From: a virus
Taxonomy: Duplodnaviria > Heunggongvirae > Uroviricota > Caudoviricetes
IMG/VR virus record: IMGVR_UViG_2526164598_000015
DNA length: 39,465 bases
Direction: 5' to 3' (one strand)
The translations under genes and the position numbers were made by a program. The notes beneath the pieces were generated by a model that ran no database searches, was not told the origin of the DNA, and saw only the letters and a program-made list of their open reading frames with translations. Position 1 is the stretch's first letter. Every line of letters starts with the position of its first letter. Of this stretch, positions 9,472 through 12,297 are shown in pieces.

Positions 9472-9585
9472 TCCAAATCTGAATAATTAAATCCAGCACT
9501 GTAAATAAAATTTAATCCTTAACCGGAGGGATTTCTGCACCCTCAGAACATCAGGAGGCCGCCCGAAAGGGCGGTGGAGATAATA

Positions 9586-10109
9586 ATGGAAATAACTAAA
9601 GAACGATTATTGGAAATAGCAAATCTTAGTGAAAGGGCATTAAGTGATGGGAGGATTATTTCTCCTGATGCTTATGAATCAGTTACAAGTATAGAAATAA
9701 TAACGATGGCCAGGATGCTTCTTGGTTGCCTCAAAAAAGAATATAAAAAAAGGTGGATAGCAATGCTAATATATATGATATTTTGGACAGTTGGGGGGCT
9801 TGGGCTGCAGCTGGAAATAGTTCTATCAACTGGCAGCAAGTGGCTGATAAATATAAAGATGTAGTACCTCATGGTAAGAAATTACGCCGTCAGTGTGGCA
9901 ACGATGAAGGTCGTATGATTGATACCTGCATGTTGAAGCTTAAACAATATAGAATAGATGACTATGAGTTAATTATCGCTCATTTTGTTATAGGTATATC
10001 TTTGCGTACAATAGCACGAAGGTACAAATGTTCAGATGGAACAATAAGAAAGAATATACAACTTACAATGGGAGTATTGTTAGGATTGTCTTTTTATGTG
10101 CAATTATAG
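9586..10109 (+). pseudogene. Sigma-70 region-4-like HTH protein with reading frame split at an A7 tract (needs a -1 shift at 9745-9751 to fuse 55-codon N-terminal part to 119-codon C-terminal part)
   Basis: Upstream ORF (frame 1) and downstream ORF (frame 0, opens right after TAA 9744-9746) meet at AAAAAAAG; C-terminal part has region-4-like HTH (DYELIIAHFVIGISLRTIARRYKCSDGTIRKNIQ); AT-rich. Confidence 0.4.
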
Positions 10110-10114
10110 ATATA

Positions 10115-10594
10115 TCACATGAGCCTTGTTATGTCTTTTAGACGCGACCAGGTAGTATAAAATTTTTTAAATGTAATAAGCAGGAAAAAAATTCCCACTT
10201 GGAGTAATAGTTGGGCATATGTGTGCTCGTCGGCATCTTTTACTAGTGGGAATTTAAACTTTAGTGTATCAGGGAAAAATAATAAAATGATAAAAATAAT
10301 ACAAACTGATAGTAACCATCCCATAGTGGAGTGCATTTCTTCGGTCAGTTTTTTCAAATAACCAGTTTTTCCTATATTTCTAATTAGCGTATTATCTCTA
10401 GCTGAAGCAATCAAGGTAAGCGAACCTAAAACAAAGCCAAATAATATCCCAGAAAATGTAGAAACGGCCGAAGCGATTGGCTGAATTTGTGCAAAATTTA
10501 GCTTTGCAGAAAGAGGCCATGCGATGATACAAAAAACAACAGAGGCTAAATTATAACCATAACTGTACAAAGTTATCAATTTCCCCTTTTTCAT
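10115..10594 (-). CDS. Four-helix membrane protein, RexB-like candidate (second gene of two-gene cassette)
   Basis: 159 aa, four hydrophobic segments; segment LTLIASARDNTLIRNIGKTGYL resembles lambda RexB LTFLIGSRTRRLAKIREYGYM as recalled; 15 bp downstream of the 304-aa gene; AT-rich. Confidence 0.55.
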   Translation of the reverse strand: MKKGKLITLYSYGYNLASVVFCIIAWPLSAKLNFAQIQPIASAVSTFSGILFGFVLGSLTLIASARDNTLIRNIGKTGYLKKLTEEMHSTMGWLLSVCIIFIILLFFPDTLKFKFPLVKDADEHTYAQLLLQVGIFFLLITFKKFYTTWSRLKDITRLM

Positions 10595-10609
10595 ACCATC
10601 GCTCCAAAA

Positions 10610-11524
10610 TTAATCAACTCTTTGATTGGCTACTCCAAAGTATGCCTTCAATTCATCATCTTTACTATCTTTTGCAAGAGTTAAGGCGCTCCAAATGCTG
10701 CCAACTAATGGATACCTACCTCCAAGTTCAACATCTGTGTAGTAGACTAATTTGTCTGCTACAAGATCGATAGGATGCTGTACACCGGTCTCAATGTCTT
10801 GGGTTTCTAGTTTAAGTTTTTCAACCTCAAAAGTCTCTAGTGTTTCTTTAAAGGCTCTTTTTAGTTGAGAACCTAGATAGCGAGATTCAGGATCTTCAGA
10901 ACGACTATCCCCACGTAATGTAAGATTTACTTTGGCAGAATTAGTACCATTTAGAGTGGCTATCAATGCATTGTTGAAGTTATGTTCAACATCCTCATAT
11001 AGTTGCACATTCTTTGGCCGAGCGATACCGATTTCTAGAGTTTTGATTCGAACTTCATTACGCATCAACCACTTTAAACTACTGGTCTGAATGATGGGAT
11101 TAACAGTTGTATTTTGTGAACTGTTGGAAAGATATTTACTTAATAGCAACCAGCCATAACAGAGTCTGTTTCGTTGAATTATTAAAACTGAGTCTTGGGT
11201 ATAAAAATGAAAATAAGCTTTTTCTAATAAGTTTTCATTGATTTCAAGTTTAATTTCTCTTTCTTCACCTCCGGCTACAGCAACATGAGGGAGATTATTG
11301 GTTCTGTGTTTTCCTATAACTCCCCTGAAACCATAGTCGGTTCTTTCCATGAAGCGCATTTCAACTAGTTTATTTCCTATTTTACGTACAGTTTTGTCTC
11401 GGCCTTCGCTGTATGACTCAAAAATTTTTGAAAAAACAGCTTCAGGTGAATTAACTCCTGCATTTGTATCAGTGCTTATAGTGTGACATTGATAAAAATC
11501 GAAGAAAAAGCGCTTGCTAGCCAT
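10610..11524 (-). CDS. Soluble 304-aa protein, first gene of the cassette; RexA-like by position and size only
   Basis: ATG 11524 with AGGA RBS; no hydrophobic segments; no motif I can assign; AT-rich codon usage unlike flanking phage genes. Confidence 0.45.
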   Translation of the reverse strand: MASKRFFFDFYQCHTISTDTNAGVNSPEAVFSKIFESYSEGRDKTVRKIGNKLVEMRFMERTDYGFRGVIGKHRTNNLPHVAVAGGEEREIKLEINENLLEKAYFHFYTQDSVLIIQRNRLCYGWLLLSKYLSNSSQNTTVNPIIQTSSLKWLMRNEVRIKTLEIGIARPKNVQLYEDVEHNFNNALIATLNGTNSAKVNLTLRGDSRSEDPESRYLGSQLKRAFKETLETFEVEKLKLETQDIETGVQHPIDLVADKLVYYTDVELGGRYPLVGSIWSALTLAKDSKDDELKAYFGVANQRVD

Positions 11525-11769
11525 TGCAAAAATTTCCTGTAAAAAAAATAATTACATACTTAAGATACTACAAAGAATAATGCGTACGCAAAATTTTTTG
11601 TTGAGTAGAATATGTTCGCGGGGTATTTTTCGTTAAGATATAATTACCATGGTAACTTTTGCGTTGGTAATGCATTATGTGGTGGAGAAAAAGAGAGAGT
11701 CTTATCTTTAAATTATCGCCAGCCTATATGACTATATGAGTAGTATTTAGATGGGAAATTGTTGAGTTA

Positions 11770-11799
11770 TTGAAAGGAACCATAACCTTTATGTAAAAT
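11770..11799 (+). promoter_or_regulatory. Candidate hok mRNA promoter (-35 TTGAAA, -10 TAAAAT)
   Basis: 17-bp spacer; transcript start would fall near 11806 where the leader (GGGTGCTTGAGG...) resembles the plasmid R1 hok mRNA 5' end as recalled. Confidence 0.4.
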
Positions 11800-11879
11800 T
11801 ACTGCGGGTGCTTGAGGTTATCTGTCTCAGGCATGCCACCAAAAGGCAGATAGAAAAAAGCCCCAGTTAACGTTACGCG

Positions 11880-11960
11880 TCCTGCAAGACGTTTAACATT
11901 AATCTGAGGCTCAATCTATGAACGGCAAATCTAGGTTAGCCTCTTACGTGCCGAAAGGCA
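11880..11960 (-). ncRNA. Putative Sok-like antisense RNA (approximate location, by analogy)
   Basis: Inferred only from hok/sok locus organisation: antisense to the hok leader / mok start region; no promoter confidently identified. Confidence 0.25.
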
Positions 11961-11974
11961 AGGAGAAGCAGGCT

Positions 11975-12130
11975 ATGAAGCAGCAAAAGGCGATGTTAAT
12001 CGCCCTGATCGTCATCTGTTTAACCGTCATAGTGACGGCACTGGTAACGAGGAAAGACCTCTGCGAGGTACGAATCCGAACCGGCCAGACGGAGGTCGCT
12101 GTCTTCACAGCTTACGAACCTGAGGAGTAA
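11975..12130 (+). CDS. hok: Hok/Gef-family type I toxin (HokD/RelF-like)
   Basis: 51 aa MKQQKAMLIALIVICLTVIVTALVTRKDLCEVRIRTGQTEVAVFTAYEPEE: TM helix plus conserved LCEVR..G..EVA.F.AYE motif; in-frame upstream mok-like extension from 11918; AAGGAGAAG RBS. Confidence 0.85.
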   Translation: MKQQKAMLIALIVICLTVIVTALVTRKDLCEVRIRTGQTEVAVFTAYEPEE

Positions 12131-12200
12131 GAGACCAGGTGAGGGAGAAATCCCTCGCCACCTCTGATGAGTCAGGCATCCTCAACGCACCCGCACTTAA

Positions 12201-12227
12201 CCCGCTTCGGCGGGTTTTGTTTTTTCC
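12201..12227 (+). terminator. Rho-independent terminator after hok
   Basis: CCCGC-TTCG-GCGGG hairpin followed by TTTTGTTTTTT. Confidence 0.6.
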
Positions 12228-12297
12228 TGGCATTCTGGTTTACAATTCGCACGCCAGCCTGAACAACTGGCACCTGCTGCGCCAGCAGAGACAACCG

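Follow-up and report, generated by a model that had tools for sequence, protein, structure and literature searches.

The stretch of DNA analysed here (39,465 nucleotides (nt), hereafter the window; IMG/VR virus record IMGVR_UViG_2526164598_000015) is a near-complete Rac/Qin-like lambdoid prophage of E. coli, and the AT-rich block in its nin-type region (Table 1) is probably a mobile three-gene "moron" module, the working part of which would be a distant abortive-infection pair of the RexAB type. The module comprises a gene resembling the antiterminator Q (the Q-like gene) and, convergent with it, an operon of two genes, one for a soluble protein of family DUF6731 and one for a small membrane protein, which together are referred to below as the Rex-like pair. 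This pair is classified as a putative new, sequence-divergent member of the RexAB kind.

The DUF6731 protein matches its Pfam profile with a score of 47.6 bits (gathering cut-off 27) over residues 1–268, and the same profile is matched by all 26 aligned homologues. An exhaustive search at E <= 1e-3 recovered 787 cluster representatives of DUF6731 (50% identity), and the pair's family is conserved over its full length across phyla, with 40–50 invariant residues. The predicted structure has the two-domain fold of the RexA/RdgC type; it superimposes on lambda RexA (PDB 8TWQ) with 9% identity, and its matches in fold searches include CENP-N (7.7), CHL4 (7.6), IML3 (6.4), RdgC (6.1) and the SulA-family epimerase 3oh8 (5.5). 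The reported structural neighbours of RexA itself include RdgC, an NDP-sugar epimerase of C. glutamicum, IML3 and CHL4 (Adams et al. 2024, PMC11077077), and a chance fold match is thus unlikely, as the matches of DUF6731 recur among them. A profile built from 135 DUF6731 sequences could moreover be aligned with a profile of 23 RexA sequences over 253 collinear columns, near the full length of both (P 1.4e-4, probability 52%), where the reversed template gave P 0.13 and the cross controls P ~0.5. BLASTP of the pair against lambda RexA and RexB returned no match, nor did a search of PDB sequences with the DUF6731 protein and its profile; a signal came from the deep profile and the fold search only. 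No model of PADLOC-DB 2.0 matches DUF6731, and no single catalogued system there covers both genes. Literature searches on the RefSeq protein accessions, on PDC-M53/M18 and on lambdoid defence hotspots yielded no account of this system.

The membrane partner is modelled by AlphaFold2 as four long helices (predicted local distance difference test score, pLDDT, 80), in agreement with its hydropathy, and the position of its gene, directly downstream in the same operon after a gap of 15 nt, is that of the small four-helix partner in RexAB-type systems. The hidden Markov model (HMM) of RexB in PADLOC matches this protein weakly (E 0.0015) and matches 20 of its 23 homologues (best E 5.1e-6), far more than any other model does; the only other PADLOC match of the protein, likewise weak, is to PDC-M18B. 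The weak similarity to the RexB profile falls on helix 2 and the next loop, where a G-Y-[LM] motif is common to both. No match was found in Pfam (RexB, PF15968) at E <= 0.01, and neither protein of the pair is functionally annotated in Pfam, PHROGs or PADLOC, save for the weak RexB match. Matches of small helical bundles in fold searches are non-specific; the fourth-ranked match of the membrane-protein model in BFVD, below significance, is a 165-amino-acid (aa) protein of phage Sbash, possibly its RexB-like gp31.

The two genes are kept together well beyond E. coli. In each of the eight loci of the species-representative genome set (Photobacterium, Aeromonas, two Pseudoalteromonas, a Saprospiraceae metagenome-assembled genome, Endozoicomonas, Marinobacterium and Geomonas) they lie side by side in the same orientation, as they also do in every IMG/VR locus with downstream sequence, including a member of 25% identity. 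The top BFVD matches of both structure models (E 1e-16 and 8e-3) belong to one uncultured siphovirus genome. All contexts in which neighbouring genes were examined are prophages. The Klebsiella order runs cI, cro, replication genes, DUF968, Q (PF06530, 122 aa), the convergent pair, holin and lysozyme, and in a Vibrio the pair directly follows a prophage integrase. Both open reading frames (ORFs) are intact and 99–100% identical over all E. coli copies found, in three left-flank contexts. Upstream of the operon, a 30-nt block is all that E. coli and Klebsiella have in common; it can be read as -35 and -10 motifs (Table 1) and overlaps the palindrome GCGTACGC (repeat I2). From its conservation we infer that it is the operon's own promoter.

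If the pair works as lambda RexAB, Sbash gp30/31 and P. putida RexABpp do (PMC6426596, PMC12894663), it would be expressed in the lysogen from this leftward promoter. The DUF6731 protein may act as a cytoplasmic RexA-like sensor, probably a DNA-binding dimer, and the 159-aa four-helix protein as a RexB-like effector. Upon superinfection, the RexA-like protein would sense phage-made DNA or a DNA–protein intermediate and activate its membrane partner, which would then depolarise the membrane, deplete ATP and abort the infection.

Several results weigh against this assignment. The RexA HMMs match neither the DUF6731 protein of the window nor any of 26 family members (Pfam PF15969 at E <= 1, PADLOC at E <= 10), comparisons of a shallow DUF6731 profile with RexA gave nothing, and a literature search found no paper mentioning DUF6731. 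The similarity of the membrane protein to RexB is weak (hhalign against a six-sequence RexB profile, P 0.025 over 56 columns), and its model found no match in BFVD at E <= 0.001, with lambda RexB outside the top 50. A strict consensus sigma-70 scan upstream of the operon found no promoter. The location is also unusual, as the pair lies away from the immunity repressor, in the nin-type region several kilobases downstream with the replication genes between, whereas all true RexAB loci examined directly follow a cI-type gene.

That the pair belongs to a module is indicated by base composition and homology. In 300-nt windows the guanine–cytosine (GC) content is 0.32–0.39 over about 9450–11850, down from 0.48–0.53, and 0.50–0.56 in the two flanks, and that of 9472–11789, the most AT-rich part of the whole stretch, is 0.355, compared with 0.518 in the remainder of the window; none of 651 non-overlapping segments of equal length reaches so low a value (minimum 0.436; z = -5.0). 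The composition is therefore not uniform, and the sharp shift described in the initial annotation is borne out, with its right end at ~11790 instead of 11920. Alignment with related prophages places the edges at similar points: against a cassette-free prophage (L002) homology extends to 9623 and resumes from 11789, and against that of E. coli E7-1N7 (L003) it covers 9510–10061 (the Q-like gene, 86% identity) and resumes from 11790. In other backbones the left edge falls at 9454–9510, and the module is found with three left flanks (DUF4752, DUF977 and Ea22-like). In the cassette-free prophage a 138-aa hypothetical protein (L002:3284–3700) fills the slot, and its upstream region and about its first 13 codons are common with the Q-like gene (9586–9623), so one recombination junction falls within the 5' part of the open frame. 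A discrete mobile element was rejected, as the island edges showed neither direct nor inverted repeats and no integrase or transposase; exchange through recombination in the flanks is more likely.

Among the 5426 complete genomes of E. coli, 19 contain the full island, and the flanks (DUF4752 plus hok) are matched in ~4755. The full-length Q-like gene occurs in 68 of these genomes, 19 of them with the DUF6731 pair. The cassette exchange proposed in the initial annotation is therefore supported, as the module is rare, its flanks are common and the slot is filled in related prophages by at least six other cassettes, or by none. Prophages lacking the Q-like gene hold in the same place small hypothetical genes, Ea22/DUF7167 genes or, in K-12, relBE.

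A search of IMG/VR with the Q-like gene yielded 24 loci, so that what is known of the slot comes from 24 viral contigs plus a few genomes. Wherever the sequence suffices, the Q-like gene is followed within 0–30 nt by a convergent, minus-strand, AT-rich operon (GC 0.33–0.39), and hok follows the operon in each such locus save L026, where none lies within the available 4 kb. Six classes of cargo were distinguished: (a) the DUF6731 protein with the RexB-like membrane protein (the window, L001, L014, L018–L024, L039 and L040); (b) a 309-aa protein with a 182-aa membrane protein (L003 and L034); (c) an NA37-family protein of 380–398 aa with a 410-aa membrane protein (L025–L028); (d) an NA37-like protein of 352 aa with a 493-aa protein (L029–L032); (e) proteins of 365, 142 and 234 aa (L035–L037 and L041); and (f) the PADLOC candidate system PDC-M53A/B (L038; E 2e-21 and 5e-39). 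In class b, the soluble protein (309 aa, L003) aligned with the deep DUF6731 profile over 207 columns (P 1.1e-4); apart from it, NA37, PDC-M53A and the other cassette proteins showed no convincing similarity to the DUF6731 and RexA profiles. The NA37 loci (L025:4526–6935 and L029:4550–7013) encode homologues of this YejK-like nucleoid-associated protein with large membrane proteins, an unannotated two-gene architecture and a candidate for a further defence system. The Q-like gene and the last gene of the cassette end with stop codons that lie 0–30 nt apart or overlap (window 10109–10115; L003, L025, L029, L035 and L038), and no terminator was found between the convergent genes in any cargo class; with stops so near and no terminator between them, the two transcripts must overlap antisense.

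The Q-like gene was described in the initial annotation as a split helix-turn-helix regulator and as one independent type of cargo. The split is real, as the gene appears in the window as two overlapping ORFs (9574–9864 and 9753–10109), and its identity can be refined to a phage-21-type Q homologue with an added N-terminal domain. Its C-terminal ~115 aa form the phage-21-type Q domain (Phage_antitermQ, PF06530, E 1e-30; phrog_79), phrog_3323 covers the N-terminal module, and the phage 21 Q structures 6jnx and 6p18 are matched with E 9e-4. All 20 other copies retrieved, including that of E. coli ATCC 43896 (L001), where the gene is unbroken and encodes 174 aa, have A8 at the position of the A7 run, which reflects either a mutation or a sequencing error in the homopolymer. 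The A8 allele contains an in-phase dnaX-type heptamer (A AAA AAG) at the domain junction. Programmed -1 frameshifting was considered and rejected: five other allele classes of the Q-like gene have AAAAAACAG there, and the A run is thus not a conserved slippery site. Another frameshift occurs in the IMG/VR loci L039 and L040 (near 4212–4216), in which the Rex-like pair is unbroken. Repeated loss suggests that the Q-like gene may be dispensable or counter-selected in this context. In the window it does not lie directly upstream of the late/lysis operon, as the intact Q does in the Klebsiella relatives, and it is supernumerary here because a DUF1133 Q-type gene, which also matches Phage_antitermQ weakly, holds the canonical position.

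The standing of the Q-like gene as separate cargo did not hold, since its alleles co-vary with the cargo class (97–100% identity inside class a, 72–84% to the other classes) and gene and cargo thus form a linked unit. This linkage and the Klebsiella arrangement suggest as the source of the module a "Q-to-lysis" moron site in a different lambdoid phage; the Q21-type gene would then have travelled with the cassette and been inactivated in the window by the homopolymer frameshift. Just upstream of its start, two hairpins without a U-tract occur at 9538–9577, in a stretch kept in L002 and L003; one of them (GCCGCCC-GAAA-GGGCGGT; a 7-bp stem with a GNRA tetraloop) recalls a boxB/nut-type or processing hairpin.

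The DUF6731 pair could be read in other ways. It may serve the life cycle of the prophage, with the RexA-like protein modulating the lysis–lysogeny switch, or recombination and replication as RdgC does, and the membrane protein being accessory or unrelated. The fold, which RdgC shares, and the place of the Klebsiella pair beside Q, in the late-regulation region, are consistent with this, as is the finding that lambda RexA by itself tips the bistable switch to the lytic side and shows non-specific DNA binding (PMC11077077). The strict co-occurrence with a four-helix partner in every full-length locus examined fits a sensor and its effector instead, the pair occurs at the integrase end of the Vibrio prophage and in genome contigs of distant taxa as well, and patchy distribution with cassette exchange is typical of accessory or defence genes, so that a life-cycle role is considered unlikely. 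An addiction module, in which a membrane toxin is checked by the soluble protein and stabilises the prophage without specific phage sensing, appears the least probable of these alternatives: a small membrane protein with a soluble partner does adjoin the membrane-toxin addiction locus hok, and relBE holds the corresponding position in the K-12 Qin prophage, yet the gene order (soluble, then membrane), the sizes and the RexA fold match Rex and are unlike known membrane-toxin toxin–antitoxin families, of which no model is matched in Pfam or PADLOC. The distinction between addiction and abortive infection is in part semantic.

Between these two in probability, and thus also quite improbable, is a decaying recombination scar, that is, a fragment of the Q-to-lysis region of another phage placed upstream of hok, silenced (as AT-rich sequence it is a likely H-NS target) and non-functional. 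The frameshifts in the Q-like gene of the window and, at a different site, of L039 and L040 would agree with decay, as would the origin suggested by the Q-then-cassette order of Klebsiella and the frameshifted cro-type and DUF4406 genes in the prophage of the closest relative. Such a scar is hard to reconcile with two intact Rex-like ORFs nearly identical behind three left flanks, with a family conserved at full length and in its invariant residues across phyla, and with damage confined, among the module genes, to the Q-like gene (A8 to A7 in the window only). There is, finally, a small chance that the interval from the Q-like gene to hok is a dedicated and so far undescribed hotspot of E. coli lambdoid prophages for diverse modules of one design, a soluble nucleic-acid-binding sensor and a membrane effector, with the Q-like gene as a functional third component; it could, for example, silence the cassette through convergent, antiterminated transcription once the prophage enters the lytic cycle. 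The classes of such a hotspot may include the DUF6731/RexB-like pair, the second, distant DUF6731-like pair, the NA37-family protein with its membrane protein, PDC-M53 and others. A limited literature search found no description of the slot between the Q-like gene and hok. The cassettes of the slot may serve in defence, as the initial annotation had supposed.

The hok locus, which had been counted among the cargo of the island, is conserved backbone, present in most E. coli genomes, and the right-hand anchor of the variable slot; it lies outside the compositional island, as its GC content is 0.50 and the AT-rich block ends at ~11790. It would be a separate element marking the right edge of a recombination hotspot of swapped cassettes. 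The locus is a complete type I toxin–antitoxin system, with a Hok ORF, an overlapping mok, a sok/leader RNA and a 3' terminator, and is transcribed divergently from the two-gene cassette, as first noted (hok on the plus strand, the cassette on the minus strand). Its Hok is identical to HokD of K-12, where homology starts only at 11961 because relBE replaces the leader. The order given for Qin in the initial annotation (relBE, hokD, rem, ydfU) agrees with that of K-12, relB-relE-hokD-rem-ydfU-ydfT, and the order hok, small gene, DUF968 is indeed kept in the window; the small gene was rejected as rem, having no similarity to the K-12 gene. A RefSeq hypothetical ORF of 59 aa, named "mobile element protein" in some phage records, runs antisense to the 3' region of hok and to the small gene (window 12172–12351, minus strand; L001 8872–9051) and probably arose as an artefact of annotation. 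The type I restriction–modification genes hsdM and hsdS of E. coli E7-1N7 replace DUF968-RusA-Q to the right of hok (L003:6412–8630), so this side can also hold defence cargo; in phage Tritos (L016) an ImmA/IrrE gene lies there.

The island region is 99.8% identical to a prophage of E. coli ATCC 43896. The gene order annotated there runs LexA family protein, cro/CI-type regulator, YdaT, replication gene, DUF977, DUF4406, DUF4752, "antiterminator Q family", hypothetical, DUF6731, hokD, small gene, DUF968, RusA, DUF1133, methyltransferase, tRNAs and holins, which places the island in the equivalent of the lambda nin region, between the replication genes and Q. The DicF RNA, adjoining dicB, and the three tRNAs are features typical of Qin/Rac-like and Stx-phage-like prophages, and the terminase and tail genes of the window lie rightward of the tRNA cluster.

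Table 1. Coordinates of the features of the window discussed in the text.
Feature	Position	Strand	Remarks
DicF RNA	4415–4466		74 bits; adjoins dicB
DUF4752 backbone gene	9196–9471	+	Left flank here; Pfam E 4e-43; kept in cassette-free L002
AT-rich accessory module	9472–11789		Q-like gene, Rex-like operon and operon upstream region; delimited by GC content and homology breaks
Q21-family antiterminator homologue (Q-like gene)	9586–10109	+	Extra N-terminal domain of ~56 aa; 174 aa if intact, frameshifted here
A7 homopolymer	9745–9751	+	Frameshift site of the Q-like gene; A8 in other copies
RexB-like membrane protein (putative)	10115–10594	-	159 aa; four long helices; 15 nt downstream of the DUF6731 gene
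RexA-like soluble protein (putative)	10610–11524	-	304 aa; DUF6731 family, Pfam PF20505
Putative promoter of the Rex-like operon	11562–11591	-	-35 TTGCGT (11591–11586), -10 TATCTT (11567–11562), 18-nt spacer
hok promoter-like site	11770–11799		
hok/sok/mok type I toxin–antitoxin locus	11790–12226	+	Complete; leader from ~11806; GC 0.50
sok element	11806–11980		Rfam RF01794, 108 bits
mok	11918–12130	+	Overlaps hok
hok	11975–12130	+	Pfam HOK_GEF, E 3e-23
hok terminator	12199–12216		
Small conserved phage gene	12298–12570	+	Backbone; 90 aa; phrog_1212
DUF968 (YdfU-like) backbone gene	12500–13627	+	Pfam E 2e-63; 81% DNA identity to K-12 ydfU
DUF1133 Q-type gene	13990–14544	+	Pfam DUF1133, E 2e-102; canonical late-antiterminator position, upstream of tRNAs and lysis genes
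Three-tRNA cluster (Met-CAT, Arg-TCG, Arg-TCT)	16223–16472		Preceded by the DUF1133 Q-type gene and a DNA methyltransferase gene

For DUF6731, a family of considerable size for which no function has been described, a link to RexA/RexB provides a testable one; if true, this link would carry the Rex system, long known but of unresolved mechanism, into many Gammaproteobacteria and other taxa. As the E. coli carriers of the module among the complete genomes are nearly all human isolates, it may affect the phage sensitivity of clinical strains. The more original lead is the hotspot between the Q-like gene and hok, with its repeated soluble-then-membrane cassettes: most of those seen there are unannotated, and the slot can serve as a simple genomic "bait" with which to look for more two-gene exclusion systems among the prophages of enterobacteria.

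Among known systems, the pair is most readily compared with lambda RexA/RexB (8TWQ; PF15969 and PF15968). Both are prophage-borne two-gene operons encoding a soluble protein of ~280–300 aa and then a four-helix membrane protein of ~145–160 aa, the deep profiles of the soluble proteins can be aligned collinearly (probability 52%), and the partner proteins match the RexB HMM, weakly in the case of the window. They differ in the low identity after superposition and in the failure of the RexA HMMs to detect DUF6731. Lambda rexAB lies downstream of cI under PRM, whereas the pair of the window lies in a nin-type region, convergent with the Q-like gene and with its own putative promoter; and lambda RexAB is a known exclusion system, whereas exclusion by the present pair is putative. 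P. putida RexABpp (PP_5643/PP_5644), Sbash gp30/31 and CarolAnn gp44/43 differ from it in their other hosts, in lying near the immunity region and in their sequence families, which are DUF4747-type or unassigned (apparently so for PP_5643).

The slot resembles moron and defence hotspots such as the Q-to-S stx site and those of P2/P4, in which conserved flanks surround interchangeable AT-rich cargo transcribed apart from the phage operons. Stx phages carry stx at the Q-to-S site, and in the Klebsiella relatives the pair occupies precisely the interval from Q to the holin gene. The anchors here are different, as they consist of an N-terminally extended Q21-type gene and hok/sok, upstream of DUF968-RusA-Q. 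Compared with the window, the Qin prophage of K-12 has a hokD without the mok/sok leader, a rem unrelated to the small gene, and neither the Q-like gene nor the Rex-like pair; it shares the order hok, small gene, DUF968 and Q and the identical Hok, and carries another accessory cassette, relBE, on the same side of hok.

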